Below are positions 16,135-44,703 of a stretch of DNA of 63,877 bases, one piece after another. Made by a program: the position numbers and the translations under genes. The first letter of the stretch is position 1. Each line of letters starts with the position of its first letter. The stretch covers positions 124,001 through 187,877 of the forward strand of contig NW_027142279.1 in assembly GCF_036365525.1 (NCBI RefSeq), written 5' to 3'. The DNA is from Heterodontus francisci. Lineage: Eukaryota. Under the pieces are notes generated by a model that searched no databases, was not told the DNA's origin, and saw only the letters and a list, made by a program, of their open reading frames with translations.

Positions 16135-16627
16135 CTGACTCCAGGCACAGAAATACAGGGCCGAATGATTCTCCCGCAGGCTGGTGGACTCCAGGTTGAA
16201 GTGGGAGCCAGTCGGTCGCTTGGCTGTGAAACCCTCCACAGTTCCCTCTGAGTTCACACTTGGTGTAGCTGCGGAGTAAAACATCAGCCGCGGCTCCTTC
16301 CCCGGGTCCTGTCTGTACCAGAACATGGAACCGCTGCTCTCACCCTCCACACGGCACTCCAGTCCCACTCCCTCCCCAGGAAATCTGGAGACGGCGGTGG
16401 GAGCCTGGCGGACCCTTGCTGAGATTGCGCCTGGGGGAAGAGACCGGGAGAGAAGAAGGTCAGTGAACAGGGACAATCTGGGATGTGAAGAATGAAACAA
16501 GGAGAGAAAGATAGAGAGAAAGAAAATAAGAAAGACAGCTGTTAACACAAATAATGGGGGTGTGGGGTGGTGGTGAGAAAGATCCCTTACTTTGAAATAA
16601 GACCATGAGACTCAGTAACAGATACAT
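16135..16627 (-). CDS. TRBV: TCR beta V segment, inverted, TRBV30-like family; leader 16627-16591, V exon 16430-16135; apparently intact
   Basis: Leader MYLLLSLMVLFQ with GTAAG donor; in-frame acceptor; ...LECRVEG...WYRQ...HSALYFCAWSQ. Confidence 0.92.
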
Positions 16628-16924
16628 CTTTCACTGGAAGCTGAACCTGCAATTGGGAAATCAGTGGAAAGAAGAGAGTTGAGTCTTGTGAGAAGCCACA
16701 TGAAGACTCAAGCAAGTGATTGAGGTTTGCCCAACACCTCCCTCCCTGATGGGGAACCCACGCCCCTCTCTCTACCATTGGCTGCCAGTAGTTGCTGTTG
16801 CATTTGTTGGTATCATTCTGCTGCTGAAGTTGTTGTTGTATTTGTTGTTGTATTTGCTGGTGTTTTTCTCCGACTGAGGTTGTTGGATTTGTTGTTGCTT
16901 GAATCTCCTTCTGAGGTAGTTGTT

Positions 16925-17245
16925 GTAATAAAAGCAAAATACTGCGGATGCTGGAAATCTGAAATAAAAACAAGAAATGCTGGAACCACTCAGCAGGTCT
17001 GGCAGCATCTGTGAAAAGAGAAGCAGGATTAACGTTTCGGGTCAGTGACCCTTCATCGGAACTGACAAATATTAGAAAAGTCACAGGTTATAAGCAAGTG
17101 AGGTGGGGGTGGGGCTAGAGGTAACAAAGGAGGTCTAGATTGGACCAGGCCACATAGCTGACCAAAAGGGCACGGAGCAAAGGCAAACAATATGTTAATA
17201 GTGTGTTGAAAGACAAAGCATTAGTACAGATTAGGTGTTAATACA
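16925..17245. mobile_element. Retroelement terminal fragment (Penelope-like end common in sharks) inserted in the AAC satellite
   Basis: aaaatactgcggatgctggaaatctgaaataaaaacaagaaatgctgg...aacgtttcgggtc; a related fragment lies at about 24040-24610. Family call is from recall. Confidence 0.5.
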
Positions 17246-18660
17246 CTGGTGGAGGTAGTTGTTGTGTTTGTTGGTGTTTTCCCTGCTGAGGTTTTAGTTG
17301 TACTTGGTTCCTTCCCTGCTTAAGTTGTTGTTCAATTTGGTTTTTGCATGTTGAGGTTGTTGTTGTATTTTTTGGAGTTTGTTTTCCCCTGCTGAGTTTA
17401 TTTTCTCTTTTTCAATTCATTCATGAGATTTTGGTTGAGGCCAGCATTTATTGTCCATCCCTAATCACCTAATTGAGAAGGTGGTGCTGAGCTGCCTTCT
17501 TGAACCGCTGCAGTCACGTGGGGTAGGTAAACCCACAGTGCTGTTAGGAAGGGAGTTTCAGGATTTTGACCCAGTGACAGTGAAGAAACTGTCTTGGCCC
17601 CAAAACAAGGCAGCAGGTTGACGGGTCTTATTGGGTCATAGTGTCATGCAGGTCAAATCCAGGCCATTCAGCCCATCGATCCTAGCCTGGCAGCTCGAAA
17701 GAGCGACCTCCTCCCAGCTTTCTTCATCTTACCCTATCAACAGATTCTTCTATTCCTTTCTCACTCATGTATTTATTCAGCTCCCCTTTAACTGCATCGT
17801 CTCTATTCGACCTCAACCCATTCCATTTGGTCTGTAATTCCACATTCTCACCGCTCCCTGGGTTAAAGAACCTCCTCCTGAATTCCCAATTGGATTTATT
17901 AAGTACTACCTTACATTTATGATCCCTGGTTTCATCTTCCCTGTCCAATTACTCCCACTCCCTGTTCTTTCTGAATGACCCTGCACTTGATCTTGCAGCT
18001 TGTCTGCCTCCTTCCCGACATTACAACACTTCAAAATGTATTTGACTGGTTGAGGCTTGAGTGAAGCAGAGAGCTGTCGGGCCGAATGGCGCGGATGTAT
18101 GCATCAACTTCCATCTAGTTCTGGGCCACAAGCGCCAACACGAGTCGAGTAGGAGAATATAACTGATGACTGAAACAGGTTCAGGGTCTGACACTGAAAC
18201 GCCTGCAGAATCGGTGCTTGCAGTTGCAGCTGGAGCCACTAGGTGCCAGTGGTACTCCACTGCATCCGCTGCCCAGCACATGCTCAGACAGAGTGAGCTT
18301 TACCCACAGCAGCTCCACAGGTCAACTCGACTGCTTCTGAAATGTTTCACTTCTCAACTATTTCACCCACACAGAAAAACGCAGTTAGACTGCATCATGT
18401 TTGGTCTTTAATATTGACCAGAGGCCCCCCGGATTCCCCTGAGGCCTCCTTAGCTCAGCCCCGGGAATGACCTGTCAACATGTCAACATGTGGGAGCCAA
18501 TGAACCATCAGGAATTTGCACCCCCTCCCTCCCACCAATGGGAACATGAAACAGTGGGGAGGAGGAGACAGTAAATGTCACTCAGAACATTGAGATATTC
18601 TGCAATAAACCAGCTCAGTGATTTCACACAATGAACACATGGATCTGTCTCCCTCCAGAG

Positions 18661-19542
18661 ATGACTGTGTCTCACCTCTGGGTTGTGTTGCTGGTGTTAA
18701 GGGGTAAGGTGGAACTCGACTGAGAGATGTCAGTCATCTTCACTGCTCTTTCCCTGTGTGACCCCATTGGGGGTTTACCCCCTTACAAGGCACCGTCACT
18801 GTGATTGTTAATTTAGCTGCTCTCTTTCTCGTTTTGTATCCCTTTCTCTATCTCTCTTTCTCTCTGTCTAACAATATATGTTCCTCTATGTCTGTCCCTC
18901 CCACTCTCCCTTTCTCTCTGTCTCTCTTGCTCTCTCTCCCTGTCCTCTTAGCTCCTTCATGTCTGTTGCTCATGTCTAGAATGTTGCTGTTTTTCTCCCT
19001 CTGTCTGTGCTTCCCTCTCTCTTTCTCTCTGTCTCTGCTTCTCTCCTTTTCTATCACTCTTTTTCACTCTATGTCTCTCTCGCTCTTTGCAGCTCCCCGT
19101 CTCCCACCTCTCCCTTCTTACATAGAAACACGGGACATTTAGGGCACACAGTAGGTCATTCAGCCCATCGTGCCTCTCCCCTCTTCGTGGCCGATGTCAA
19201 TTTAAACATTGCCCCTGGGTTTATCTCTCTCTCTGTTTTACAGATGTGGGGGCCGTGTTGATCCAACAGATTCCCGCTTCCTTATCCCATTCCCCAGGCT
19301 CTCCAGTCAGTATCCAGTGTATTTACACAAAGGCAGATGCTGGCTCCGATGTCTACTGGTACCCGTGGCATCCGGACCCTGAGCCCGAGAACCTTTTCTA
19401 TTCCACCTCTGCCGGAACGGTCATTCCCTCCAGAGAGGTGGACGGTTTCACCGCCAGAAGACCAAACAACACCCATTTTTACCTGGAGTCCACCAGCCTG
19501 TGGGTGAATCAATCAGCCGTGTTTTACTGTGCCTCGAGTCTG
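18661..19542 (+). CDS. TRBV: TCR beta V segment; leader 18661-18703, V exon 19244-19542; open frame with atypical WYPW
   Basis: Leader MTVSHLWVVLLVLR with GTAAG donor; IQQIPAS...IQC...WYPW...NQSAVFYCASSL. Confidence 0.88.
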
Positions 19543-19581
19543 CACAGTGACTCAGAAAGGTGCCAGATTTCAGCAAAAACT
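19543..19581 (+). other. 23-RSS
   Basis: CACAGTG - 23 nt - GCAAAAACT. Confidence 0.95.
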
Positions 19582-19694
19582 CTAAAGGGGGAGGAAAGCA
19601 CTTGTGGGAGATAAACCCGTCTGTCTATCTCAGTGTCTTTCTGTCTCTCTGACTATCTGCAGGTTTCTGTGTCGCTTTGTGCGTCTCTGCATCC

Positions 19695-19761
<67 letters not shown>

Positions 19762-20865
19762 CATGTGTCTGTCTGTCTATTTTTCTATCTNNNNNNNNNN
19801 NNNNNNNNNNNNNNNNNNNNNNNNNNNNNNNNNNNNNNNNNNNNNNNNNNNNNNNNNNNNNNNNNNNNNNNNNNNNNNNNNNNNNNNNNNNNNNNNNNNN
19901 NNNNNNNNNNNNNNNNNNGGTTATTTGCACTATTTATCTATCTATTTATCTTGATTATATATATATTTGTCATTGATTTATCTCTCCGTCTCTCACCTCT
20001 CTAAATATGCATCCACCATATATTTGACGTTTATCATCTATCTAACACCATTATTTGCACCATACCAGTTTAATTATTGATATATCATGATTTGTATTTT
20101 ACTGATAGTTTCACCTTCTTGCTCTCCTTCGACTCAGAGTACATCAATACATTATGAATTATTAAAAATGCTGCAGCAATGTGATCAGATCCTACTCGTT
20201 CAGGCAGCCTCTATCTGCAAAGAACAGATTCCGAGGTGGGGTAAATGGGTTCATGGTCCTGTTGAATGAGCTGTCTGTGGTTTATGACAAGAGTTACACA
20301 TAGCTCCCTGTTGTACATGTCCCCAATGATTCATACAATGCAAAAGTGAGACACCTCCCCAGAGAGGTCTCTCACTGGAACACCTGCCTCCTGACGGCGG
20401 TTTGAGCATCTGTTTAAAACAGTTAACCCACTTCTTCATGACACTGTCGCTTTTCAAAGTATCTAAGATTTCACCCCAATGTAAAACATAACCCTTGAAT
20501 TGTCGTTTAGCCCAGGGGAAATAAATCTTTATCTGCCTAATACAAAGAAGCAACTTGATGTGTCTTATATATTTATAAAATCAAACAGCAGAGCCGAGGC
20601 CATTCAGCCTATCGAGCCTGGCCCGTCTGTTCGAAAGAGCTACCCTATACAACACCAATCAGACACAAGCAACGAGAGCCTGATGCAGACGGGAAGCAGT
20701 TCCTTGTTCAAGCTCCTTCCGACCAGTGGGTGTTATTATTCTGTCATACCCAGAAGTGAGGGGTCAGAAGGAAACCCTGCTTCCAGTGCTGTCATTTCCG
20801 CTCTCTGCTTTATCTTCAGCCGCCTGATATTGGTTCATGAACAGAGTCAGCCTTCAGTCTGCAGG

Positions 20866-21681
20866 ATGCAGTTTGCCAAACTCTTCCTAATCGTCTGTTC
20901 ACTTCTTCCATGTAGGTATTCATCCTTCATAAAGATACCTGTGCTAAAATACATGCTGTGTTTTCATTCACTACTAACTTCTATCAAACTAGATTGATAA
21001 AACATCATTGCAGTCGATTTTCTGTCATTTCTTAAACTACATACTTTACTTTCACTGTAAATAATATTTACTTAATGAAATTATTGACTGAATGAAAGTT
21101 ACTTATATATTCGTGACGCTACTATAGCTATCTTTAACCGATAAGTTTGCCCTAATTCTGGGTTAATTTGTCTCTCTCATATCACTTGCTACATTATTTT
21201 TCAATCTCTATATCTATCTGTTTATTATCTATATATCTACAAATATATCATTTAACTATATATTGTCTGCCTATATAGTTATCTAGTATTATCTACCTAT
21301 CTATTTGGATAGTTATAGTTGGTTATCATATGTCACAATATGTTCTAAACTTTTTAAACTATTCTCCTTATTTCTCAAGACAAAACTCTAGCAGAGATGA
21401 TACACCAGTGGCCATCTCTGGTGGCAGTGAAGGGAGGCGAACCAGCAGAATTAAACTGTTACCAGAATGACAGTAGTAAGAACGTTATGCTGTGGTATCG
21501 GCAGTATGCCGGGCAGGGGCTCACCCTAATGGGCTATTCTTTCATTGGAAGCTCACCCACGTACGAAGGAAAATTTGAAGAGGAGGTGAAGATTATAAGG
21601 CCCGAGGACAAACGATGCAGCCTGAGGGTCCTCAAGGTTAAGGCTGCGGATGCGGCGGTGTATTACTGTGCAGCCAGGGAG
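20866..21681 (+). CDS. TRBV: TCR beta V segment of a different family; leader 20866-20911, V exon 21380-21681; intact ORF with a non-canonical heptamer
   Basis: Leader MQFAKLFLIVCSLLP with GTAGG donor; IHQWP...LNCYQND...WYRQYAGQGL...DAAVYYCAARE. Confidence 0.9.
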
Positions 21682-21720
21682 CAAAGCGCTGCAGACTGCC
21701 TTAGTGCCAGTGCAAAAACC
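21682..21720 (+). other. 23-RSS with defective heptamer (CAAAGCG)
   Basis: CAAAGCG - 23 nt - GCAAAAACC. Confidence 0.85.
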
Positions 21721-22074
21721 AACAGGGTGAACAACACAACTGACAGACATGCAGGAGCAGTGACAATGGTTAATGTCTCTCCCTGCCTCACCGGCCGTTT
21801 TCCAAGCTGGTGATTCCCGGATTCCTGAACCTTCATCATGGGCTGAATGACAGGGAATAGCAGAAGGTCCGAGGAAGAGAGAGAGAAGGAAAGAGAGAGA
21901 TGTGTCTCAGATCCCCTGCAAAATTTCAAAGTCCTCGTCTACACCGTTTAATTTCTGGCACTGAGTATGTTAAAACTGAGTCACAGTCTCTGTCCTATAC
22001 TTGATTAATTAAAAGGTTAATTAATGATGTAAATAAGACAGATAGTTTACATCACCATTGTGAAGTGATGGATA

Positions 22075-22600
22075 GAGTATCAATCATCTACAAGGTACAA
22101 GTCAGGAGTGTGATGGAATACTCTCCACTTGCCTGGATGGGTGCAGCTCCAACAACACTCAGGAAGCTCAACACGATCGAGGACATAGCAGCCCGGTTGT
22201 TCAGTACCCCATCTACCACCTTCAACACTCACTCCCTTTACCACAGTGGCAGCAGTGTGTACCATCTACAAGATGCACTGCAGCAAAGCATTGAGTGCCC
22301 TTAGACAGCACCTTCCAAACCCACCAACTCTACCACCAGAAGGACAAGGGCAGTAGACTCATGGGAACACCACCACCTGCAAGTTCCCCTCCAAGCAACA
22401 CACCATCCTGACTTGGAACTATATCGCCGTTTCTTCACTGTCGCTGGGTCAAAATCCTGGAACTCCCTTCCTAACAGCACTGTGGGTGTACCTCCCCCAC
22501 ATGGACTGCAATGTTTCAAAAAGGCAGCTCTTCACCACCTTCTCAAAGGCAAATAATTGCTGGTCTTGCAAAAGAAATTCACGTCCCATGAACGAATAAG
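22075..22600 (+). mobile_element. CR1-like LINE 3' fragment
   Basis: Encodes IYKVQVRSVMEYSPLAWMGAAPTTL. Confidence 0.75.
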
Positions 22601-23296
22601 AAAAACAAATTATATCAGGTCTTCCACGACTTCAAGACGCCCCAAAACAGTTAACAGCCAATTAAGAACTGGAAAATGATGGTCAGATCCTCTGCTACTT
22701 CTTCTCTTGCTTTGATTTTTTTTAATTCATTCTGGGGACCTGGGTCCCTCTGAGAAAGTCAGCAGTTATTCATCGTCACTCATTGCCCTGGAGAAGGTTT
22801 GTGCTGCCTTGTTGGTAACTGAAGGGTTTGCTAGGGCATTTCAGAGAGCAGTGTACTTGAAACACGGAAGCCAATTGGTGTACAGCACCATGCCATAGGC
22901 AGCATTAACAGACAGATAGATAGATAGGAAGGCAGACAGACAGACATTAGTTAGATAGATAGATAGATCGATAGATCGATAGATAGATAGATCGAAAAAT
23001 CGAGCGATCGATCTCCTGGCTTCGCTGTGAAAGCGAGCTCACAAAGAGATAGGAATGAAGATATTTACAGTGGAGCAGAAAGTGGCGAGGGGGGAGGCAA
23101 GGGGAGAGAAGAAAGAAGGAAACGGGGGCATAAGGAAGCAAACAAAAGAATGGAGGACAACTTAAAAAGTAGGGGCAGGGATCATTGCCTTGAGATAACT
23201 TCCTCTTATGACGAACCGCTCTGCTGACACCTCATCTCTCTCCCTCCCTTTAAACCCAGAGTAACCAGCAGAAAGTCTCTCAGATCCACCGCAAAC

Positions 23297-23807
23297 ATGC
23301 CTTTCAGTTTCATCGTCTTTGTTATTTCCCTTCTGGCGCTGAGTAGGTTAAAATTCTGTCCCAATCACTCTTCTACATTTGTTTAACTGAAAGGGATGAT
23401 TAATGATCTCAATAAAACTGAGCAGCGGTGACTTGTGAAATCAGTAATCGATTATTTCATATCAGACAGTGAACTCATTCATCTGTCCCCTAGTTTGGGA
23501 AGACAAGTGTTATTAATATGATGTTAACTCTTTAATGTTTGCACCCACTTGCAAACTTGTGGATTCCACAATTCTATTTTACAGTTGTAAAGATCCAGGT
23601 TCTTGTCGGAAATTGGGACACAGACCGAATTTCCGTCGTTAATTCGGTGCAACACCGACGCCCATCGTCGCAATTGTAACTCCATCGATACTAGTTCATT
23701 CCCTCTAATTTCTCTTTCTAGGTGTTTGCCGGGGTGATGTGATACATCAATGGCCTCAGTCACTGGCTGTTAAACAACCAGTACCCGTGGAAATGAGTAT
23801 TCACTGA
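23297..23807 (+). pseudogene. TRBV: Truncated V relic: leader 23297-23342 and FR1 only (23722-23807)
   Basis: Leader MPFSFIVFVISLLAL with GTAGG donor; exon VCRGDVIHQWPQSLAVKQPVPVEMSIH*; no Cys, Trp or RSS; runs directly into the post-V conserved element. Confidence 0.8.
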
Positions 23808-25214
23808 CAGTGTTGTCTTTCTCCAAAGGGACAGCAGAGGGCGGTGTAGGACCGTGATAAGTATCAGATTATTGATGATGTTTCAATAGGGACTTTGAAA
23901 CTTGTCCATGAACCGCTCCTGATAATTATAGAACTACATCCCGGTTACAGTCTGGTGAACTGAACACAAGGTACCGCAGATGCTGGATGGTTTAGGTTCT
24001 GGATGGTTTAGGTCACTATATTGGAGCTTAATGCGTTTCTGGGGTATAAATAAATAAGGATGGAAATACTAATCAGGTCAGACAGCCTCTGTGGAGAGAG
24101 ACAAAACATTAACATATCAGGTCGTAGACCTTTCAACAGAACTGGAAGGATTTAGTGATCTATCAGCTATTAAGCAGCAGAGAGCCAGGGAGAGGGAGAA
24201 TGGGAGGAATGCAGGAGAGACTTAATAACAAAACTGAGGCTGGTGCAAGACAAAGGAGATGTTAATGGGTCAAGTAAAGAACAAGAGATGGGTCTAGAGG
24301 AGGTGAAAGTAGCAGAAACACAATTATTACCAACAAACCTCTGCCCATATAAACCGGAGCAGTTGTTACGATCAGAAATTGTTTAACTCACTGTTGAGCC
24401 CAGAAAGCTGCAAAGTATTCAATTGAAAGATGATGTGCTTTTCTTCGAGTTTCTGTTGAGCTTCACTGGAGCAGAGAAGGAGGTCGAGGACAAAGAGGTG
24501 GGAGTGGGAATGAGAATTAAAAGTATCCGCTAACCGGAATCTCAGGGTCACACTTGCAGCCTGAATGCAGGATGTTCCACAATGCTGTTAGCCTGTTGCT
24601 GTACTTGGTCTCTGCAGCTAGTCCCACTCCCCCTGCCCTTTCTAAATAACACTGCATATTTTCCTTACACATAATTATTCAAATTTCCTTTTGAAAGCGA
24701 TGATTGAAACTGCCTCCCCCGCACTCTCAGGTAGTGCATTCCAGATCCTAACCATTCACTGTGTCAAAACGTTTCCTCAGTTCACCTTTGGATCTTCTGC
24801 CAATTACCATCAATAAGTGACCTCTGGTTCTCAATCAATCCGGTGATGAAACATAGAGACAGAGAGGGTGAATCAGGGAGACGTCGTGAGGAAAAGCTCA
24901 GTGGAAATGAACGGGACAGAGGGACACAGAGACAGAAAGATGCACACACACACAAACACACACAGATGCAGAGAGAGAAAGAGAGTGAAAGAGTTGTAGA
25001 CATAAAGCTGGATGTATGCAAATAGAGAGAGAGAGAGACATTGTCAACCTACTCCACTCTGACTTGTCTACCTGGGCGTCACCATCTCTGCATCACTTCC
25101 TAATGCTCTTCCTTTTCCTCCCAATGATTTGTAAAGAGTGGGTTGGTTATTAACAACACTCATCACTCCTGCTCTCTCCCCTTTGCTGATTCAGAGGGCA
25201 GCTTAAAGTAAATG

Positions 25215-25688
25215 ATGTATCTGTTACTGACTCTGATCAACCTGTTTCACCGTAAGGCATTTTATTGAAACAATAATACTACTTAACATTTCTTTAGGTG
25301 ATGTTTTTATTTATTTATTTCTCTCTTTCTCTCTCCCACTGGACTGAAGTTCCCTGTTTACTGATCTCCTCCTCTCCCTGTCTCTTTCCCAGATGTGAAC
25401 TCACAGAATATCCACCAGACTCCCGCCGCTGTCTCCAAATTTTCTGAGGAGCAGGTGAAGCTAAAATGCACCATGCAGGGCAGCAGTAACCCTGACATGT
25501 TCTGGTACAGACAATACCCGGGGAAGGAGCCACAGTTTATGTTTTACTCCACAGGTACTGATCACATAAATCCGGAGAAGGCGGTGGACGGTGTCACCGC
25601 CGAGAGACCGACTAGCTCCCAGTTCAATCTGGAGCCCTCCAGCCTGCGGGAGAATCACACGGCCGTGTATTTCTGTGCCTGGAGAGAT
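25215..25688 (+). CDS. TRBV: TCR beta V segment, TRBV30-like; leader 25215-25251, V exon 25393-25688
   Basis: GTAAGG donor, in-frame acceptor, C-W-C landmarks, ends YFCAWRD. Confidence 0.93.
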
Positions 25689-25727
25689 CACAGTGACTCA
25701 GAGAGTTGGAGCAGTTCAACAAAAACC
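25689..25727 (+). other. 23-RSS
   Basis: CACAGTG - 23 nt - ACAAAAACC (full consensus). Confidence 0.97.
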
Positions 25728-27487: not shown

Positions 27488-27972
27488 ATGTATCTGTTAC
27501 TGACTCTGATCACCCTGTTTCACCGTAAGGAATTTTATTGAAACAATAATTCTACTTAACATTTCTTTAGGATATGGTTTTATTTATTTCGTTCTCTCCT
27601 TCTCTCTCTTTCTCTCTCCCCACTGGACTGAATTTCCCTGTTTATTGATCTCCTCCTCTCCCTGTCTCTTTCCCAGATGTGAACTCACAGACTATCCACC
27701 AGACTCCCGCCTCTGTCTCCAAATTTTCTGAGGAGCAGGTGAAGCTGAAATGCACCGTGGATGGCACCAGTAACCCTTACATGTACTGGTACAGACAATA
27801 CCCGGGGAAGGAGCCACAGCTGATGTTTTACTCCCTAACTGCACAAAGGGTGAACTCAGAGGGGACGGTGGAGGGTTTCACCGCCGAGAGACCGACTGAC
27901 TCCGAGTTCAACCTGCAGTCCTCCAGCCTGCGGGAGAATCACTCGGCCGTGTATTTCTGTGCCTGGAGAGAT
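27488..27972 (+). CDS. TRBV: TCR beta V segment, TRBV30-like; leader 27488-27524, V exon 27677-27972
   Basis: SQTIHQTP...KCTVDGTSNPYMYWYRQ...HSAVYFCAWRD; canonical splice sites. Confidence 0.93.
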
Positions 27973-29093: not shown

Positions 29094-29549
29094 ATGTATC
29101 AGTTACTGGGTCTGATAATCCTGTTTCATTGTAAGTGAGTGTGAAATACAAAGATTATCGGTAATAACTTTCCTCTCTTCTCCCTGTCTCCCTTTCATTC
29201 AGAGATGTTCCCTGTTTACTGATCTCCTCCTCTCTCCATCTCTCTCCCAGATGTGAACTCACAGACTATCCACCAGACTCCCGCCGCTGTCTCCAGATTT
29301 CCCGGGAAAGGAGTGGAACTGAGGTGCACTGTGGAGGGGAGCAGCAGTAACATCTACATGTACTGGTACAGACAAGAGCCGGGGAAGGAGCCGCTGTTGA
29401 TGTTTTACTCCAGTATTGCTAAATATGTGGATCCAGAGGGGACGGTGGACGGTTTTACCGCCAAGAGACTGAATAAGTACGAGTTCAAACTGGAGTCCTC
29501 CAGCCTGCGGGAGAATCACTCGGCCGTGTATTTCTGTGCCTGGAGTCTT
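29094..29549 (+). CDS. TRBV: TCR beta V segment, TRBV30-like; leader 29094-29130, V exon 29251-29549
   Basis: Leader MYQLLGLIILFH with GTAAGT donor; ...RCTVEG...WYRQ...YFCAWSL. Confidence 0.93.
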
Positions 29550-31181: not shown

Positions 31182-31882
31182 ATGTTGCTTGAAGTTCTCT
31201 GTCTAATCTTGATGCCTGCCCTGTTCCCACGTAAGTCAAAGTCTGAAACTGTAGAATAATGTATTGCAATGTCAGCGGTGATTCTGTTCCGTAACACTCC
31301 TGTGTCAGAGTCTCACTCCAGAACACTTGAGCTCAAAGTCAAGGCTAACACCCCAGGTGTCAGGACTGAGGGAGTGCTGCGCTGTCACAGAGGCAGTACT
31401 GAGGGGCTGCTGCACTGTCGCAGAGGCAGTACTGAGGGAGTAACTACATTGGTTGCCAAGCCCTTTCTGATGTCCTGAGGTCCTGAACGGCGCTATATTA
31501 ATGTAAGCCCTTTCTATCTTGCAATGCAGCTCCTGCTCCAATCCATTATTGACAGAAATAATAAGCTAATCGATGTTCCATCCCACAGGAATACTCTCCT
31601 CCTATGTGGAACAGTCGCCCTCTATCCTATCGATTGCAGCTGGAGATTCGACAACACTCAGATGCACGCTGACCAATACTGGCTATACATTAATGTACTG
31701 GTACAGACAACAACCAGACAGGGCACTGGAAGCTCTGTTCTATTCTGCTGGTCAAGGGTCTGTTACCAATTACACGTCCGAATCATTTAAGGCAGTCAGA
31801 ACCAGCGATACACTGTTTACTTTGGCACTGAGAGACGCCGCTCCATCTCACACCGCTGTCTATTTCTGCGCTTGTAGTATCG
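31182..31882 (+). CDS. TRBV: TCR beta V segment of a distinct family; leader 31182-31230, V exon 31589-31882
   Basis: Leader MLLEVLCLILMPALFP with GTAAGT donor; VEQSPS...LRCTLTNTGYTLMYWYRQQ...HTAVYFCACSI; SINE fragment in the intron. Confidence 0.92.
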
Positions 31883-31921
31883 CACAGTGTTTGAGAAAGC
31901 GGATCAGCAGCTGCAAAAACC
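31883..31921 (+). other. 23-RSS
   Basis: CACAGTG - 23 nt - GCAAAAACC. Confidence 0.96.
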
Positions 31922-31940
31922 TGCAGCGGATGAACAGGAT

Positions 31941-32520: not shown

Positions 32521-33445
32521 ATCCTCCCTGATGTTGGTGGGCACAGTAATGAGCACAGACCAAGCTGTAGAATAGATCAGCAGCCCAGTATGACCCAGAT
32601 ATTGTTCCACCTACATCCCTCGGGCCAGTGTTGCAGAAAACGTTTGCCAGGAGTCCCACCTGACTATTTGAGAATCAACATCTGGCTATTTTTCTGAATT
32701 CGTTCATGGGATGTGGGCCTCGCTGGCCAGGCCAGCATTTATTGCCCATCCCTAATTGCCCTTGAACTGAGTGGCTTGCTAGGCCATTACAGAGGGCATT
32801 TAATAGTCAGCCACATTGTGTGGATCTGAAGTCACATGCAGGCCAGACCAGGTGAAGGCAGCAGATTTCCTTCCATAACTGACATCAGTGAACTAGATGG
32901 ATTGTTGCAATAATGGTCACCATTAGACGAGATTCTTTTGAAAATGTAGATTTATAAATGACATTAAAATTTCATGATCTGTATTGGTGGGATTCACCCC
33001 CACGTCCCTAAAACACTAGCTGGGGCGGTGGTTTAGGAGTCAAATTACCAACACACTAAAACATCCCCTACAGGAGCAGATCATTTGGAATGCAGATGTC
33101 TATAATTGGAAATCTACATGTGGCTAATTTGGGAATGCCGATGAGGTTCATTGGGAATCTGGATCTGTACAATTGGAGATTTCTAATCAGTAAATTAGAA
33201 ACTGAACAACAGAGACACTTGTTGGGGATTTTAACAACACTTACTCCAGTCACTCAACCAAAATAAGCAACCACGTCCAATCTGATTGGTTGGGTGGTAT
33301 AAGGGGGCGTGTCCAATACTGCATCACTTCCTCATGCCCTTCATGTTTTCCTCAATGATTTGTAAAGAGCGGATTGGTTAGTCACAGAATTGATCCCCTC
33401 TGTTCCACTGCCTTTGCTGTTTGGTAGGGCAGTGTCAAGTGGGAG

Positions 33446-33897
33446 ATGTATCTGTTCCTGGGTCTGATAATCCTGGTTCAAGGTGAGTGCCAAATATAAA
33501 GATTATCATTCAGAACCTTCCTCTCCTCTCCCTGTCTTCCTTTCATTCCCAGAAATTCCCTGTTTACTGATCTCCTCCTCTCTCCATCTCTCTCCCAGAT
33601 GTGAACTCACAGACTATCCACCAGATTCCCGCCGCTGTCTCCAGATTTCCCGGGAAAGGAGTGGAACTGAGGTGCACTGTGGAGGGGAGCAGCAGTAGCA
33701 TCTACATGTACTGGTACAGACAATACCCGGGGAAGGAGCCGCTGTTGATGTTTTTCTCCAGCACTGCTAACTATGTGGATCCAGAGGGGACGGTGGACGG
33801 TTTCACCGCCGAGAGACCGACTAGCTCCCAGTTCAACCTGGAGTCCTCCAGCCTGTGGGAGAATCACTCGGCCGTGTATTTCTGTGCCTGGAGTCTT
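33446..33897 (+). CDS. TRBV: TCR beta V segment, TRBV30-like; leader 33446-33482, V exon 33599-33897
   Basis: Leader MYLFLGLIILVQ with GTGAGT donor; ends YFCAWSL. Confidence 0.93.
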
Positions 33898-33936
33898 CAC
33901 AGTGACTCAGACAGATGGAGCTGTTCAACAAAAACC
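33898..33936 (+). other. 23-RSS
   Basis: CACAGTG - 23 nt - ACAAAAACC. Confidence 0.97.
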
Positions 33937-36098: not shown

Positions 36099-36161
<63 letters not shown>

Positions 36162-36347
36162 GAGAGCGGCATTGTCTACCTACTCCACTCTAACTTGTTG
36201 ACCTGGGCGTCACCATCTCTGCATCACTTCCTACTGATTTCCCTGTTCCCTTTACAATGATTTGTAAAGAGTGGGGTGGTTGTTGACAACACTAATCACT
36301 CCTGCTCTCTCCCCTTTGCTGATTCTGAGGGCAGCTTAAAGTGAAAG

Positions 36348-36834
36348 ATGTATCTGTTACTGACTCTGATCAGCCTGTTTCACCGGAAGGGATTTTATTG
36401 AAACAATAATTCTACTTAACATTTCTTTTGGATATGTTTTTATTTCTCCCATTCTCTCTTTCTTTCTCTCTTTCTCTCTCCCCACTAGACTGAAGTTCCC
36501 TGTTTACTGATCTCCTCCTTTCCCTGTCTCTTTCCCAGATGTGAACTCACAGACTATCCGCCAGACTCCCGCCGCTCTCTCCAAATCTCCTGGCGGGCAG
36601 GTGAAGCTGAAATGCACCGTGGATGGTAGCAGTAACCCTTACATATACTGGTACAGACTACACCCGGGGAAGGAGCTGCAGCTGATGTTTTATTCCCTAA
36701 CTGCACAAAGGGTGAACTCAGAGGGGACGGTAGAGGGTTTCACCACTGAAAGACCAACTGACTCCGAGTTCAACCTGGAGTCCTCCAGCCTGCGGGAGAA
36801 TCACTCGGCCGTGTATTTCTGTGCCTGCAGTCTT
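36348..36834 (+). pseudogene. TRBV: TRBV30-like V segment with intact exon and RSS but a mutated leader splice donor; leader 36348-36384, V exon 36539-36834
   Basis: Donor reads GGAAGG at 36385 versus GTAAGG in the paralogues; WYRL; ends YFCACSL. Confidence 0.8.
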
Positions 36835-36873
36835 CACAGTGACTCAGAGAGATGGAGCAGTTCAACAAAAACC
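36835..36873 (+). other. 23-RSS
   Basis: CACAGTG - 23 nt - ACAAAAACC. Confidence 0.97.
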
Positions 36874-37464
36874 CCAAAGGCAGCAGGAAACACCTGTGGA
36901 GGGAAAAACCGTTCGGTGCCTCGACCGACTGTTCCTTTATGCAGAGTGAAAGTGTTTATTACAATAAAAAGAGTTGAGTTATGATTGTAGTGACACACTA
37001 GATTTACAGGTACTGCCGAGGGTGCAAAGAACGATTAATAAGATAGCACGAGATCTCAGAATGTAACCAGCAGGAATCAATGACAATAATCTGTTTTTTT
37101 ATGCACTGACACTGTGTTTACCTTCTCCACAGGGACAGCAGAAAGGGATCCAGTACCATGGACTGGACAATGGCTTTGAGAAGGATTTAGTGAGAAAACT
37201 GAAAGAGCAGGTGATCATGTAGATCCAGCTTGATACACATCAACAGGACAAGGACGCCCACTTCGTTGGAGAGAGAAAGAGAGTGTATGTGTGTGTGAAA
37301 GTGAGAGTGATCTAGTGAGAGCGAGAGGAGAGTGAGACGAAAAACGACAGGTAGAGTTAAAGAGACTGAGACAGAGAGGGGGACAGAGATAGAGACAATG
37401 AGGTAAAATTACTGGGATACATCTGGAGAATGAAGGATTATTATAGGGATTGATCTGGGAGATT

Positions 37465-37940
37465 GAGTGGGGTCAGTGAGTGGAGTCAATGAGTGGAGTC
37501 AGTGAGTGGGATCAGTGAGTGGGGTCAGTCAGTGGGGTCAGTGAGTGGGGTCAGAGAGCGGAGGCAGTGGGTGGAGTCCGTGAGTGGAGTCAGTGACAGA
37601 GGCAGTGAGTGGAGTCTGTAAGTGGAGTCCGTGATTGGGGTCAGTGTGCGGGGCCAGTGAGTGGAGTTAGTGTGCCGGGTTAGTGAGCGGGGTTAGTGAA
37701 CGGGGTCAGTGAGGAGTCAGTGAGTGGGATCAGTAAGTGGTGTCAGTGAGAGGGGTCAAAGAGAGGAGTCAGTGAGTGGTGTCAGTGGGTGCGGTCAGTG
37801 AGAGGGGTCAGTGTGTGGGGTCAGTGTGTGGGGTCAGTAAGCGGGGTCAGTGAGAGGGGTCAGTGAGAGGAGTCAGTGAGTGGTGTCAGTGAGGTGGGTC
37901 AGTGACAGGAGTCAGTGAGTGGAGTCAGTGATTGGGGTCG
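37465..37940 (+). repeat. 13-bp minisatellite (cagtgagtggggt)
   Basis: Imperfect tandem copies running into an assembly gap. Confidence 0.85.
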
Positions 37941-39019
37941 ANNNNNNNNNNNNNNNNNNNNNNNNNNNNNNNNNNNNNNNNNNNNNNNNNNNNNNNNNNN
38001 NNNNNNNNNNNNNNNNNNNNNNNNNNNNNNNNNNNNNNNNNNNNNNNNNNNNNNNNNNNNNNNNNNNNNNNNNNNNNNNNNNNNNNNNNNNNNNNNNNNN
38101 NNNNNNNNNNNNNNNNNNNNNNNNNNNNNNNNNNNNNNNNNNNNNNNNNNNNNNNNNNNNNNNNNNNNNNNNNNNNNNNNNNNNNNNNNNNNNNNTCTAT
38201 CTATTGTTCCTTTTGTCTATCCATCCATCGCTCTATCGATCCCTCCAGCTATCGATACATATCTCTGTTTATCTATTTATCTCTATTTAATCTGTCATCT
38301 ATATATATTTGTCATCGATCAATTTATCTGGCTCTTATCTGTCTAAGTGTATATTCATCCCTCTGTTGTTTATCATATATCTAACGTCATTGTTTACATC
38401 TCGCAGTTCCATCAGTGATATATCATGGTTTGCTATTTTGTTGATATTGTTGCATCTTCTTGTTCTCCTTCGATTCAGATTATATCAATACAATATTAAT
38501 GATTAAAATACTCCATCCATGTGATAAGGCTCTTTTCGTGAAGGTAGCCTCTACATTTTAAGAACAGATTACGAGGCAGGGTAAATGGGTTCATGATACA
38601 GTTGAAAGAATGGACGGAGGATTCTGACAAGGAGTTGTACAGACCTCCCTATTCTACATGCCCCTGATGATTCATACAATGCAAATACGAGAGACCTCCC
38701 CAGATAGGTCTCTCACTGGAACAGATTCCTAATTTGGCGGTTTTGAGCAACTGTTGACAATTGTTCACCAACTTGTCTTTCAGACACTCGGTGTCTTCTG
38801 AAGAACTTTCAAAGCATCTGGGAGTTAGGCCCAGGCAAGAATTTAACCCTTCAATTCTCGTTTAGGAGACAGGGAAAATAAATCTTTCTCTGCCTAAAAC
38901 AAATAAGCCCCTTGATGCATCTCAGATAGTTATAGAATCAAACAGCACTAACCATGGTCATTCGATCAATCGAGCCTGGCCTGGCTGTTCGAAACAGTTA
39001 CCCAAAATAAACAACATCA

Positions 39020-39790
39020 TCCCTTGGCCATGGGCTGCAAGAAGTACAGAATCTGTTACAAACTGCTGGATAGCACATGAACTAAAGTAACCTAAGCTCA
39101 GACACTGGCCTGTGCTGGTAAAAACCAGTTTGAACTAATTAATTTATGTGACAGACAAGGGAGAAATCACAGGAATAGAGCCTTATTTGGAAACGGTGAT
39201 ATACCGGGGTCTTTGGGCCTGGGCCAATAAGGAGAAGATGCGAACGAGGTGAGCAGGCCTAAACCAACAGGAAAGAGACAGCACAGTTTTGAAGAGATAA
39301 GAAAGAGAATAAGTATGGAGAATCTCAGGCATAGTGCCAGCGGGAAACTCCAGAGACCAACCATCGTGGAAGTGGAAGACCCTGCGTGAGCAACGCGGTG
39401 ACGACATAAGAGAGAGACAGATCGGAACGTCTGGCCAGCATCAGCTCTCCCCTTTCTGGGAATTATCGTTTGTTTTCTGTGACGAGGTCAGGGAAAGGTC
39501 AGAGTAACCTAGTGGGTGTGCTTATCAATTCTAGCTAGCTTTGTTATTAACTGTATAACCCAGTTTGAGTTGCATGCTTTTGTCTAACCAAGTGTATAAG
39601 CCTTATTCTTACATTGTACAACAACATGAATAAAATAACTTGATAGTTAAAGAAAGGACTGAGTTTTCTCCTCTTTGTGCTAAGCCATTAACTGTAGCTG
39701 GTGGATTAGTTGGAGGGTGGCTCTCCTGTAACCCCAATATCCCAAACACCCAGCCTGAGTCTGAATTAAGAGGACTTAGTCCCACGCAAC
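39020..39790. mobile_element. Possible solo LTR or unclassified insertion
   Basis: Interrupts the paralogy with 19900-20650; contains AATAAA near its 3' end. No target-site duplication confirmed. Confidence 0.3.
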
Positions 39791-40019
39791 GGCCAGGATT
39801 AAGTGGGTGAAGGGAATAAAGGGGCCAAGGGGGAGTTGACTCCGCGCCATGGTTTACAATCCTGTTCCCATCTCTCTGCATTTCAGCCCATCAGCACCTC
39901 CTTCTATTCCTTACTCCCTCATGTCCTGATTTAATCTCCCCCTTAAATGCATCTCCATTATTGGCCTTAACTTACTCGCTGTGGTAGCGAAATTGTGCCC
40001 ACTGGTTGTAGTCTTCCCA

Positions 40020-41780
40020 ACCACAGAATCACAGAATTGTTCCAGTGCAGAAGGAGGTCATTCGGCCAATCGTGCCCGCACTGTCTCTCTGGAAGAGAAA
40101 TTCCCTCAGTCCCATTCCCCTGCCTTCTCCCCATAACCCTGCACATCCTTCCTTTCCATATAACTGTCCAATTCCCTTTTGAATGCTTCAATTGAAGCTG
40201 CCTCCACCACGTTCTCAGGCAGTGCATTCCAGACCTTCATCACTCGCTGCGTGAAAAAGCTTTTCCTCATGTCACTTTTGCTTCTCTCACCAAATATTTT
40301 AAATCTGTGCCCCTTCGTTCTTGATCCTTTCAGGAGCGGGAACATTTTCTCTCCATCTACTCTGTCCAGCCCCCTCATGATTTAGAATACCTACACAAAA
40401 TCGACTCTCAGCCTTCTCTTCTCCAAGAAAAACAGTCCCAACCTATCCTGCCACTTTTAATGACTTCTCCAAATATACACAAAAGCCCTTCTTCTCCTGC
40501 ACCCCCTTTCGAATTGTGCCCTTTATTCTATATTGTTCATCCGACCAAAATGAATCACTTCACATTTCTCTGCATTGAACCTCATCTGCCACCTGTCTGT
40601 CCATTCCACCAACATGTCTATGTCCTTTTCAAGTTCGACATTATCCTCCTCACAGTTCACAATGCTTCCAAGTTTCGTATCATCGGCAATATTTGAAACT
40701 GTGCCCTGTACACCAAGGTCTAGGTCATTAATATATATGAGGAAAAGCGAGGGTCCTAATACTGATCCCTGGGGAACTCCACTAAAAGCCTTCCTCCAGC
40801 CCGAAAAAACATCCATTAACCACTGCTCTTTGTTTTCTGTCACTAAACCAATTTCGTATCCATGTTGATACCGTCCCTTTTATTCCACGAGTGACAAGTT
40901 TTCTCACAAGTTTGTTGTGTGGCATTGTATCAAACGCCTTTTGAAAGTCCATGTACACCACGTCCACAGCATTGCCCTCATCAACCCTCTCTGTTGCCTT
41001 CTCAAATGAATTCTAGCAAGTTAGTTAAACATGATTTTCCCTTATGGAATCCATGCTGTCTTTCATTAATTAACTCGTCCATGTGACTATTGATTTTGTC
41101 CCGAATTATTTTTTCTAGAAGTTTCCCCACCATCAAAGTTAAACTGACTGGCCTGTAGTTGCTGGGCTTATCTTTACCCCTTTTTTGAATAAGGGTGTAA
41201 CGTTTAAAATTCTCCAGCCCTCTGGCACCAGCCCTGAGTCTAAGGAAGACTGAAAAATTATGGCCAACGCCTCTGCGATTTCCAACCTCACTTCCCTCAG
41301 TATCCTTGGATGCATCTCATCTGGTGCTGGTGCTTTATCCACTTTATGTTCAGAAAGCCAATCTAATCCTTTCTCTTTACCCATTTTAAACACTCTAGTG
41401 TCTGAATTATCTCCCTTTTCAACCAGAGCAAACTACTTAACTGCATCTACACTGTCTATACCTTTAAGGACTTTGTAGGTTTCAATGAGATCACCTCTCA
41501 TTCTTTGAAACTCTGGAGAATAAAGGCCCAGTTTCCCCAATCTCTCTTCATAGGACAGTCCCGCTATCCCGGGAACAAGTCTGGTGAACCTTCTTAGCAC
41601 TCGCTCTATGTGAATAATATCCTTCCGAAGGTCAGGGGACCAAAACTGCACACAGCACTCCAGGTGCGGTCTAACCATGGTTCTATACAATTGAAGAAAG
41701 ACTTCATTACTCCTGTACTCAAATCCTCTTGTGATAAAGGCTAACATAACATTAACCTTCCTAATTGCCTGTTGATGCTA
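40020..41780 (-). mobile_element. CR1-type LINE ORF2 fragments
   Basis: DVVYMDFQKAFD, SGVPQGSVLGP, ADDTKL and DKAPAPDEMHPRILRE motifs; frameshifted. Confidence 0.9.
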
Positions 41781-42632
41781 TATGTGAAGTTTCTACCTTC
41801 CGAAGCTCCTGCCAGGGGATATCATTTCTCCCTAACTACTCTATCGAACGGCTGTACCTACAGGGTTAAAACGTCCCATTAGCTTGCTCTGATCCAGGAA
41901 AACTGTCCCAGCTTCTCCAGTCTCTCCACATAACAACTGTCTCTCAACCATGGCACCATTCTGGTAAATGTTATTTGAACCGTCCCAGGTTCAAGGATAA
42001 CGATGGCATAGTTGCAATGTCACTGCGATAATAAGCCAGAGGCCTCGGCTCATGCCCTGGTTACACGGGTTCAGGCACCGGCACACCCAGTGCAATTTAA
42101 ACATGCCAAGGGCCCAGTAATGTGCATAGCCCTGCTGTAGAATAGGTAAGGAGCCCAGTGCCACACAGATGGTGTTGCACCTACTTGCCTCAGGCCACTG
42201 TTGCTTACAACGTTTGCCAGGAGACACACGGCATCGACATCTGGCTATTCGGGGATGAAGGTGTGGATAATCTGGAATCCAGATGTCTATAAATTTGAAA
42301 TCTACATGTGGCTAATGTGGGAATGCCGATGAGGTTCGTTGGGAATCTGGATATTTTCAATTGGAGATTTCTAATCAGTAAATTAGAAATTGAGTAACAG
42401 GCACCCTTGTTGGGGATGTTGACAACAGTTACTCCAGTCACTCAACCATAACAAGCAACCACGTCCATTCTGATTGGTTGAGTGGTGGAAGGGGGCGTGT
42501 CCAACACTGCATCACTTCCTCATGCTCTTCATATTGTCCTCAATGATTTGTAAAGAGCAGGTTTGGACCATCACAAGGCTTACACTCCGGTTCTCGCTGC
42601 TTTGTTTATTTCTAAACAGCTTCAAGAGGAAG

Positions 42633-43086
42633 ATGTATCAGTCATTGGCTCTGATAATCCTTTTGCACTGTGAGTGAGTCTGAAATACCAACGTTTTCTC
42701 CAATAACATTCCTATACTCATTCCCTCTTCCTTTCATTTCCTAGAAATCCCCTGTTCACTGACCTCTTCCTCTTCCCCACTCTCACCCAGGTGTGAACTC
42801 ACAGACTATCCTCCAGACTCCTGCCACTGTCTCCAGAGTTGTGGGGGAGGAAGTGGAACTGAAGTGTACTGTGGAGGGGAGCAGTACTCTTACCTTGTTC
42901 TGGTACAGACAATACCCGGGGAAGGAGCCTCAGGTTATGTTTTACTCAACGGGTACTAATCACAAAAATCCAGAGAAGGCGGTGGACGGTTTCACTGCCG
43001 AGAGACCGACTGGCACCCAGTTCAACCTGGAGTCCTCCAGCCTGTGGGAAAATCACTCGGCCGTGTATTTCTGTGCCTGGAGTCTT
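42633..43086 (+). CDS. TRBV: TCR beta V segment, TRBV30-like; leader 42633-42669, V exon 42791-43086
   Basis: Leader MYQSLALIILLH with GTGAGT donor; ...KCTVEGSSTLTLFWYRQ...YFCAWSL. Confidence 0.93.
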
Positions 43087-43125
43087 CACAGTGACTCAGA
43101 GAGATGGAGCAGTTCAACAAAAACC
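43087..43125 (+). other. 23-RSS
   Basis: CACAGTG - 23 nt - ACAAAAACC. Confidence 0.97.
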
Positions 43126-43499
43126 CCAAAGGCAGCAGGAAACACCTGTTGGACATACAATTGCGCGGTATTTCCACTTGAATTGATGCAGGGCGATGAT
43201 ATTTTTGACAATATGAGACGGGTGAGAATAAAATTGAGAGCACAGGTGCAGAGGCGAAGAGTCTGGCCTCTTTCTGTGCTGATAAGTTTTCGATCTTTCT
43301 ATGAAAGATTAAGAAGGGTGGCAGCACACTGAGGTTTTAACTATCAGGAGAGAATATCAGGAAAGCGATTGGGGTTTTATCCACTAACACGGTGTCTTCT
43401 TTCACTCAGATGATCAAACACACAACTCTCTTTGTTAGGAACAAAGGAAGAGGAGTGGGCCATTCAGCCCCCTTGTCCCGTTGCATAGAAACAGGAGGA

Positions 43500-43830
43500 G
43501 ATCTTTCAGCAAATCTCGTAAATCTGCTCTGCACCCTAATAAGGAGCATCACATTCTCCCTTAAGTGTGGTGGCCAGAACTGGATGCAATACTCCAGCTG
43601 GAGCCTAACCAGAGCTTTACAACGGTTCACTGCTTTTGTACTCAATACCTCCATTTATGAAGGTCAGGATCCCATCTGCTTTACTAACCACTCTCTCAAC
43701 ATGCCCTGCCACCTTCAAAGATCGATGCACATGCAGCCTCAGGTCCACTGTTCTGTGCAAACTCTTTCGAAATCTGCCTTTTGGTCTATATTGCCTTTGC
43801 CTATCCCTTCAGCCAAAATGCATCACAGCG
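43500..43830 (-). mobile_element. CR1 LINE fragment
   Basis: Encodes KALVRLQLEYCIQFWPPHLR. Confidence 0.75.
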
Positions 43831-44477
43831 AATTTCTCCAAGAAGAGGGCCTTTTAGGACCAGTAACACACAACTGCCTGGAAAACTGTTTATGAAGAAT
43901 TCAGGAGGAGGTCTCTCAGTTTTTTAGAGCCTCTTACAAAGGAACATGAGGAGGCCAATTACTCCCCTGCCTCATTGCGCACAAACAGGAGGAGGCTATT
44001 GAGCAATGTAGAGCTTGTTAGCAGGAATTGGAGAAGGGTACTTAGTCCCCCTTGAGCCGATTGGTATGAACAGGAGTAAGCCATTCAGCCCCATTGAGCC
44101 TGTTGCACAGGAGCAAGAGGAGGCCAATTCAGTTCCCCGCTCAGTCTGCACAGGTACAGGAGGAGGCCCATTCAGCCCTTCGAATCTGTTAAATAGGTAA
44201 TGGGTGAGGCCATTCAGCCCCATCGAGCCTGTTACATCTGAAGAGCCATCCACATGTGACAGTTCCGCTCAGGCTCTTGTATCCAATTGGGAAATCCAGA
44301 TGTGGAGATCCGCGTTTCTGATTGGCAAATACAAAAAGAGCAATTGCGAATTTACAACTATGCTAATTCCGATTGGTTGAATGAGAGAAGGGGGCGTGAC
44401 CAAACGTCCCTCACTACCTTGCTTTCCTCAATGGTTTGTAAAGATGAATTGATGAATAGGGAAATGTCCAGTTAAAG

Positions 44478-44703
44478 ATGTATCTGTTACTGGGTCTGAT
44501 GATCATCTCCCACCATAAGGAACTTTATGAAAAATAATGCTGCTTAATAATTTTCTTTACTTTATAATTTCCTTCTCTCCTTGACGCTTTCATTCCTCCC
44601 TTCCATCCTTCTTCCTCGATAATCCAGAGTGTCCTGGCGTCATTTTCGACCCATCTCTTTCCCAGATGTGAACTCACAGACTGTCTTCCAGAGTCCCACC
44701 ACT
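44478..44703 (+). pseudogene. TRBV: TRBV30-like relic with the V body and RSS deleted
   Basis: Leader MYLLLGLMIISH with donor GT>AT (44515); exon from 44666 encodes only VNSQTVFQSPTT, then joins the post-nonamer flank acctgtgggagataaa. Confidence 0.85.

Follow-up and report, generated by a model that had tools for sequence, protein, structure and literature searches.

In mammals, a single TRBV gene (TRBV30 in human, Trbv31 in mouse, TRBV28 in opossum) lies inverted 3′ of TRBC, carries a 23-RSS and ends in CAW (PMC2275272, PMC10772921), and mouse Trbv31 was shown to rearrange by inversion (PMC10772921). In amniotes, a clade of 3′-inverted TRBV genes has been described, with five members in tuatara, under a model in which V genes alone moved to the inverted position, and shark V genes are not placed in this clade in the text of that study, whose trees and supplements include nurse shark V genes (PMC11754216). 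Among fishes, salmonids and pike contain opposite-sense V-D-J-C pairs, and the lone inverted V genes of trout were proposed to be the remnant of a lost unit (PMC10464911).

The window analysed here, which comprises 63,877 nucleotides of the Heterodontus francisci contig NW_027142279.1 (positions 124,001 to 187,877), contains a cassette made of a V array, a D, a J and a frameshifted constant gene of a second isotype (psiC2). This cassette lies tail-to-tail with an intact C1, located on the minus strand 13.6 kb past the window end. Our main reading, to which we assign a probability of roughly 0.78, is that the window holds TCR-beta V genes, likely of the TRBV30 clade, in a V-D-J-pseudo-C2 cassette. 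Because this cassette is tail-to-tail with the intact D-J-C1 unit, its V genes likely join C1 by inversion.

The shark family resembles the mammalian genes in its CAW ending, its 23-RSS and its inverted position 3′ of TRBC, with the differences that it comprises hundreds of copies rather than one, is found in the C1 sense too and has a D-J-psiC2 between its V genes and C1. Similarly, in the squamate TRE locus a related V family heads its own D-J-C; in contrast to the model of V genes moving alone, the shark cassette includes D-J-psiC2 (PMC11754216). The layout is reminiscent of the bamboo shark (C. punctatum), in which arrays of 15 V genes are inverted 3′ of each C, the V-array-to-C gaps being 34 and 46 kb there and 34 kb here; the supplementary table lists two C genes only, leaves the gaps without annotation and gives no V family identity (PMC10322711 supplement 16). 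Several complete units are also found in salmonids and in bichir, where five are in tandem (PMC10322711 supplement 16). However, the salmonid pairs are head-to-head and have similar C genes (PMC10464911), whereas the shark pair is tail-to-tail, has a second C only about 41% identical (catshark C2 compared with C1) and is repeated 13 to 21 times.

Literature searches, which covered journals outside subscription, listed no study of TRBV30-like genes in sharks or of an inverted D-J-psiC2 layout. Rast and Litman (1994) reportedly described a multicluster TCR-beta in the horned shark, which would fit the large number of C1 units, and Pettinello et al. (2017) reportedly found two TCR-beta genes in catshark, which would match the second C isotype; in both studies, the units are said to have been neither mapped nor linked to TRBV30.

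V genes of the window

The seven full V copies and the relics reported by the first-pass annotation were all recovered at their positions, and its quoted V27677 peptide is exact. Each of the seven TRBV30-like exons has an open frame, both cysteines, the tryptophan and a 23-spacer RSS, which reads CACAGTG/ACAAAAACC in six copies and has one nonamer mismatch in V16430. This divergent gene (16096..16627), with its leader at 16627-16591 and its V exon at 16430-16135, lies on the minus strand, in the C1 sense and head-to-head with the cassette, while the remaining six are on the plus strand. V25393 (25212..25727; V exon 25393-25688; CDR1 GSSNPD), V27677 (27488..28011; leader 27488-27524, V exon 27677-27972; CDR1 GTSNPY), V29251 (29094..29588; V exon 29251-29549; CDR1 GSSSNIY), V33599 (33446..33936; V exon 33599-33897; CDR1 GSSSSIY) and V42791 (42633..43125; V exon 42791-43086; CDR1 GSSTLT) all have a leader and a perfect RSS, V27677 being the closest to human TRBV30. 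The anatomy of a functional TRBV, i.e., a leader with GT donor, an AG acceptor, an open Cys-Trp-Cys exon and a 23-spacer RSS, is present in six of the seven copies. The exception is V36539 (36539..36873), with an open exon and a perfect RSS, which is probably non-functional because its leader donor is GG instead of GT and its exon ends in CAC, not CAW. Leader-V splice joints of the family are present in contigs of one run guessed to be RNA (X5); they were recorded for V27677 and for V42791 and are not assignable to one copy.

Two plus-strand relics accompany these genes, a leader with the 5′ part of a truncated family V (44470..44703) and a leader region only (46267..46382). Four V genes of other families lie between or beside the TRBV30-like copies, at 12242 on the minus strand and at 19244, 21400 and about 31590 on the plus strand. 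They are a degenerate V that lacks the first cysteine and has a 23-RSS (12242..12523), famD, from a shark sub-branch close to the TRBV30-like family, with an RSS and no leader within 330 bp upstream (19244..19581), famC, of an unrelated TRBV family, whose RSS heptamer is without CAC here (21394..21680), and the nurse-shark-like famB, with a CAC end and a 23-RSS (31586..31921, start approximate), whose placement relative to the TRBV30 clade is unstable.

The cassette and the opposed C1 unit

The cassette D (51547..51560, plus strand), diverged from the conserved TRBD sequence, is flanked by a degenerate 12-RSS and a 23-RSS (CACCGTG/GCAAGAACT). The single J (53848..53908, plus strand) retains an FGNG motif; its splice donor and the C exon differ in phase, which makes it a pseudo-J. 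The J-C intron contains an unstranded tandem array of about 5 kb with a period near 37 bp (53940..59047). psiC2 (59755..60092, plus strand) is the Ig exon of a second TRBC isotype, disrupted by a frameshift. Its TM exon follows 1.5 kb beyond the window end, and the orthologous C of catshark has an open frame in two database gene models. The catshark C2 and C1 are about 41% identical, and C2 falls, unresolved, at the base of the TRBC tree. A kinship of shark C2 with a bony-vertebrate C or with squamate TRE was considered and found no support in the tree, where C2 did not group with the squamate sequences. Neither the D-J-psiC2 of the window nor the multi-unit nature of the locus had appeared in the earlier annotation.

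The map, which covers C2233:1-457877, gives the order D-J7-D-J15-C1-TM at 14-39 kb beyond the window end. The window V genes are thereby linked to TRBD with 12/23 RSS, to TRBJ and to TRBC with a TM exon. They are shark TCR-beta V genes; a TCR-alpha/delta or Ig identity was ruled out, since the D, J, C and TM to which they are linked belong to the TRB type. Because the cassette is tail-to-tail with C1, the six plus-strand copies are located 3′ of C1 and inverted relative to it.

The RSS geometry permits rearrangement by inversion. Since the 23-RSS of the V genes has the same orientation as the 5′ 12-RSS of a D-J rearranged at C1, their joining would invert 50-84 kb, whereas copies in the C1 sense could join C1 by deletion, and joins to the cassette's own D-J would be dead ends. 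Among the matches listed when the runs were compared with the J region, none was a V-D-J junction.

Repeated units and probable kinship with TRBV30

The genome contains 21 C1 exons, all open, and 24 C2 exons, none of which is open. An opposite-strand C2 lies 16-20 kb from 18 of the 21 C1, and of the three unpaired C1, two are no more than 11 kb from the start of a contig and one is 5 kb from a contig end. Exact matches to the family 3′ end with its RSS number 263 in the genome, on unplaced contigs, against 0 for the reversed control. Among the first 100 matches listed, 27 are in the C1 sense, 59 in the C2 sense and 14 have no downstream C; as copies also occur in the C1 sense, the inverted position is not exclusive to the family. 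Both mapped units possess separate V, D and J arrays, and each C1 comes with 2 D, 21-22 J and many V. With 21 C1 exons, the locus is not a single translocon (one V array and one to few D-J-C), and it is not composed of miniclusters of the shark Ig type (one V, one to three D and one J per C) either. The double unit may have been amplified recently, after C2 broke, by segmental duplication, inversion and unequal exchange. The contig depth of about 50 in the DNA run X1, which comes without a single-copy control, should not be read as a copy number. EPHB6 (3′) and trypsinogen (5′) neighbour the TRBV30-bearing locus elsewhere; here, no Eph exon (0/17 and 0/13 Eph matches) and no trypsin (0/16 matches) was found on the seven TRB contigs, all unplaced, and a Pfam search of 103 of the 449 candidate flank ORFs (480 kb of flank sampled) returned only LINE-type RT/endonuclease domains and one SNAD1.

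The closest named relatives of the window genes, P0003 and P0004, have the same V type joined to TRB J-C-TM. Among the window family copies, V27677 and V16430 were searched against the PDB. The best single-domain match of V27677 is human TRBV30 (75.8 bits). The next score, 48.4 bits, is that of the V-alpha domain in the highest-scoring single-chain TCR, whose V-beta domain reaches 44.1 bits; the TCR MEL5 uses TRBV30 (PMC5887915). The aligned PDB chains agree with the human TRBV30 motifs that the first-pass annotation had given. At E 1e-15, TRBV30 is not among the matches of V16430, nor among those of the control family famC. The turtle V P0002_226 scores 87.6 bits against TRBV30, and the bamboo shark P0003 scores 157 against TRBV30 and 130.5 against the next TCR-beta chain. 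The ESM Atlas returned generic V-set clusters only. Three trees, built on only 95 columns, group the shark family with TRBV30-like V genes of turtle and salamander (Andrias), with supports of 98/96, 88/72 (mixture model) and 96/87 (after omitting three rows, famB and famD). The link to mammals passes through these turtle and salamander sequences, as homologue searches with V-length queries gave no matches and the tree rows hence exclude human and mouse TRBV30. The proposed resemblance to TRBV30 thus stands on the PDB best hits, the trees and the 3′-inverted position relative to C1, and falls short in that the AU test did not reject the alternative topology (p 0.315) and the trees have no human or mouse row. 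Taken together, these comparisons suggest that the shark family likely belongs to the same ancient clade as human TRBV30. Strict single-copy orthology does not hold, given the 263 matches, and the relation to the mammalian gene is many-to-one at best.

The likeness could instead be a shared ancestral character or convergence, with the inverted position acquired independently in sharks and bony vertebrates. The AU result and the place of the clade near the base of TRBV are consistent with this possibility, as is the lability of orientation, seen in the opposite-sense units of salmonids (PMC10464911), the mixed strands of bamboo shark and bichir (PMC10322711 supplement 16) and the presence of the shark family in both senses. 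However, the 27-bit margin of V27677 over the next V domain among the matches listed, the agreement of the three trees and the 3′-inverted position shared by the repeated units make it unlikely. That assembly errors, i.e., haplotigs or mis-joins arising from a locus that has one to three C genes, account for most of the units is very improbable. Every unit is on seven unplaced contigs of 0.3-2.0 Mb, 10 of the 210 pairs of C1 loci differ by 0.3% or less, one pair being identical over 3.3 kb, and C1317:1-10000 is 99.8% identical to C2233. On the other hand, C407 alone carries six C1, and C2233 and C779 carry four each; C1 loci differ from one another by a median of 2.2%, and 13 groups persist after merging near-identical loci. 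Furthermore, a C779 cassette with a C2 nearly identical to that of the window drops to 87-91% identity within 30 kb and has a different V set. Haplotype duplicates could nevertheless reduce the 21 C1 to about 13.

It had also been proposed that the CDR1 is near-identical from shark to human through conserved ligand binding or a special pairing role. GTSNP is indeed found in V27677 and the bamboo shark as well as in turtle and human TRBV30, the forms in Andrias are GYANPN and GYASPY, and near-copies of V27677 (97-99%) are present on five other contigs. However, the near-identity applies to only one of the seven window copies (G[TS]SNP is found in three), and the 25 captured family copies display 16 CDR1 forms of two lengths, GTSNPY occurring in 3. 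In addition, pN/pS, obtained from 24 open copies by uncorrected pairwise counts, is 0.61 in CDR1, equal to the framework (0.63), and 0.99 in CDR2. The V-alpha-type sequence P0088 also has SNPY at its CDR1 end and the 42F3 V-alpha has SATPY, which suggests that this ending is an old structural motif. The ligand or pairing role is therefore highly doubtful, and a constraint may at most act on the single GTSNPY sub-lineage. Under our main reading, the family would be an ordinary diversifying part of the repertoire, in which one sub-lineage would have retained G[TS]SNP as the ancestral state.

A possible origin of the inverted V and implications

A tentative scenario, which we consider possible rather than probable, is that the ancestral jawed-vertebrate TRB locus consisted of a V-D-J-C1 unit tail-to-tail with a V-D-J-C2 unit whose V genes were of the TRBV30 clan. 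The lone mammalian TRBV30/Trbv31 would then be the last remnant of the second unit. Bony vertebrates would have lost D-J-C2 and retained the V owing to its ability to reach C1 through inversional joining, while Heterodontus francisci would have kept psiC2 as a pseudogene in every unit. In the catshark gene model P0004, a TRBV30-like V stands ahead of an open C2. Under this scenario, remnants of C2 should be present in the unannotated gaps of 34 and 46 kb in the bamboo shark table, and catsharks should have a second TCR-beta isotype that preferentially uses TRBV30-like V genes. A back-to-front V heading its own broken D-J-C may explain the source of the mammalian inverted gene, and an inverted D-J-C2 behind C1 would offer a concrete, testable origin for the conserved and unexplained inverted TRBV of tetrapods.

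Reviews describe the TCR loci of cartilaginous fish as translocons (PMC6795676). In contrast, Heterodontus francisci has 13-21 self-contained TRB units with a few hundred V genes, and the allelic-exclusion problem of the shark Ig clusters is therefore raised for TCR-beta too.

Inverted V genes heading a cassette opposite C1

The seven V exons listed by the first-pass annotation (window positions 16430, 25393, 27677, 29251, 33599, 36539 and 42791) were confirmed, with open frames, conserved Cys and Trp and a 23-spacer RSS. Six lie on the plus strand and one, V16430, on the minus strand. The leader donor is canonical in six of the seven; that of V36539, whose exon terminates in CAC, is GG. Family relics are present at 44470-44703 and 46267-46382, four V genes from other families lie near the family copies, and the nearest named relatives are all shark and ray proteins. 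At 16135-19542, the divergent minus-strand V16430 stands head-to-head with a V gene of another family (famD), marking the 5′ edge of the cassette; this pair is found again at contig positions 338890-342662.

On the mapped part of the contig (C2233:1-457877), the minus strand carries V arrays followed by D-J7-D-J15-C1-TM, C1 being the intact TCR-beta constant gene; the first unit was found with one J fewer. At contig positions 206221-226914, a single C1 is supplied by two D-J blocks, one with 7 J and the other with 15 J, and no C separates the blocks; both D segments start with GGGACAG or GGGACAA, resembling conserved TRBD. Each mapped C1 is faced tail-to-tail by a plus-strand cassette. The window, C2233:124001-187877, is one such cassette, comprising the V array, a D (51547), a single J (53848) with an out-of-phase donor, a 5 kb tandem array (53940-59047) that repeats about every 37 bp within the intron between J and psiC2, and the frameshifted exon of this second-isotype constant gene, psiC2 (59755-60092). 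The psiC2 TM exon follows at contig position 189354 and the minus-strand C1 lies at 201450. A tandem array of about 37 bp period was likewise found in a cassette on contig C779.

Because of this arrangement, the six plus-strand family copies are 3′ of C1 and inverted, matching the position of mammalian TRBV30 and mouse Trbv31 (PMC2275272, PMC10772921). They also head a dead unit of their own, with J out of phase and C frameshifted.

TCR-beta identity and kinship with TRBV30

The family consists of TCR-beta V genes. V domains of this type are joined to J, C1-set and TM regions in bamboo shark P0003 and catshark P0004, and in the PDB P0003 scores highest against a TCR beta chain, at 157 bits. 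P0003, a genome-derived model from Chiloscyllium plagiosum, resembles an already rearranged V-D-J-C1 chain whose V is TRBV30-like; germline joining of the gene or an artefact of modelling could account for this.

The top single-domain PDB matches of V27677 are 5xov (75.8 bits) and 3hg1 (75.7 bits), the other chains listed being multi-domain constructs; in the alignments displayed, V-alpha domains reached at most 48.4 and V-beta domains other than this pair at most 44.1. 3hg1 is MEL5, which uses TRBV30 according to PMC5887915. At E 1e-15, the 5xov/3hg1 chains were absent from the list of a control family in the window (famC) and likewise from that of the divergent V16430, the search having covered V27677 and V16430 among the seven copies. 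For turtle P0002_226, this pair is the best single-domain match (87.6 bits). Since the tree rows do not include mammalian TRBV30, the link passes through this turtle protein and the giant salamander cDNA P0017.

All V trees rest on 95 columns. In the first (LG+G4; 81 rows picked from 124 database and 42 genomic V domains, plus four hand-cut), the shark family, famB (another window family), famD, turtle and salamander form a 98/96 branch, the bootstrap being not fully settled, that leaves out every sampled mammalian V gene. The core of the clade was recovered at 88/72 in a 43-row mixture-model tree, from which famB drops out, and at 96/87 without the three famB and famD rows. However, an AU test did not reject moving the tetrapod rows beside other TRBV (p 0.315). 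Hence, a single clade of the shark family and TRBV30-like tetrapod V genes is likely but not proven. Bootstrap values for the amniote inverted V clade itself are low in PMC11754216.

The first-pass annotation further read CDR1 similarity as an ancient constrained ligand or pairing role. A motif search of 528 kb, which missed some copies, recovered 25; among these, CDR1 takes 16 sequences and two lengths, with GTSNPY in three. Uncorrected pN/pS over the 24 open copies is 0.61 in CDR1, 0.99 in CDR2 and 0.63 in framework. A ligand constraint across the whole family is not supported. The GTSNPY-type motif is common to human, turtle and bamboo shark and is therefore probably ancestral, although V-alpha sequences carry a similar CDR1 ending.

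A second constant isotype and its copies

In the C tree, psiC2 and the C of catshark P0004, which is open, form a 100/100 group; psiC2 falls outside both the shark-and-ray C1 clade (96/94) and the bony-vertebrate clade (97/86), its placement at the base being unresolved and on a long branch. This suggests, with the long-branch caveat, that the C2/C1 duplication predates the shark-ray split. The P0004 gene model carries a TRBV30-like V, J and C2 on one strand, and in P0118, another catshark model, the V ahead of the same C2 is a different one. P0142, a Varanus komodoensis gene model joining a VH-like domain to a divergent TRBC-like C, groups with lepidosaur TRBC and is possibly TRE or a chimeric model. 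In bamboo shark, supplement 16 of PMC10322711 places an inverted array of 15 V genes behind each C, at distances of 34 and 46 kb, and lists no feature in the gaps; the corresponding gap on contig C2233 is 34 kb.

All 21 C1 exons in the genome have an open frame; of the 24 C2 exons, not one does. An opposite-strand C2 lies 16-20 kb from 18 of the 21 C1, the other three being close to contig ends. Four psiC2 copies without a paired C1 (C2233:402300, C407:320492, C407:1362502 and C1675:395747) were attributed to tandem duplication of the cassette alone; that at C2233:402300 keeps D and TM, and no J was found. An exact pattern (family 3′ end plus RSS) gave 263 genomic matches against 0 for its reversed control, a count that may take in famD copies and that variants escape. 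The protein hits fall on seven unplaced contigs with a combined length of 8.5 Mb, which include non-TRB stretches. Among the first 100 pattern matches listed, 59 are followed first by a C2 and 27 by a C1, each in the same sense as the match, and 14 have no C downstream.

Some units are possibly haplotype duplicates, as two contigs share a 10 kb stretch at 99.8% identity. The median difference between C1 loci is 2.2% across 3.3 kb. In ten pairs it does not exceed 0.3%, and collapsing these pairs reduces the loci to 13 groups; one contig alone carries six C1. Against haplotype duplication, a cassette whose C2 is near-identical drops within 30 kb to 87-91% identity and a V set that differs.

Proposed rearrangement and relation to known loci

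From RSS geometry and mouse precedent, plus-strand family V genes would reach D-J-C1 by inversional joining across 50-84 kb, copies in C1 sense would join by deletion, and joining to the cassette's own D-J would be a dead end. Leader-V splice joints (27524/27677 and 42669/42791) were found in contigs of a run guessed to be RNA, the source copy being ambiguous. Sequence divergence suggests that C2 was already broken when the double unit was recently amplified.

Of 16 genomic matches to SNAD1 (PF18744), a secreted AID/APOBEC-like deaminase, six are located on TRB contigs, each as one open frame of roughly 250 aa (C2233:95358-95951 and 616351-616944; C407:159849-160439 and 789755-790348; C779:669308-669901 and 1207161-1207754). 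The frame at 95 kb on C2233 is located between V genes, where rearrangement of an upstream V would delete it.

The horned shark is said to have multicluster TCR-beta, and the catshark reportedly has two TCR-beta genes. An ancient inverted TRBV clade and several inverted V genes outside mammals (PMC11754216), opposite-sense TRB units in salmonids (PMC10464911) and five TRB units in bichir (PMC10322711 supplement 16) are already published, and reviews give cartilaginous-fish TCR loci as translocons (PMC6795676). No description of a tail-to-tail V30-D-J-C2 cassette, the main architectural result, was found in the open-access literature searched.
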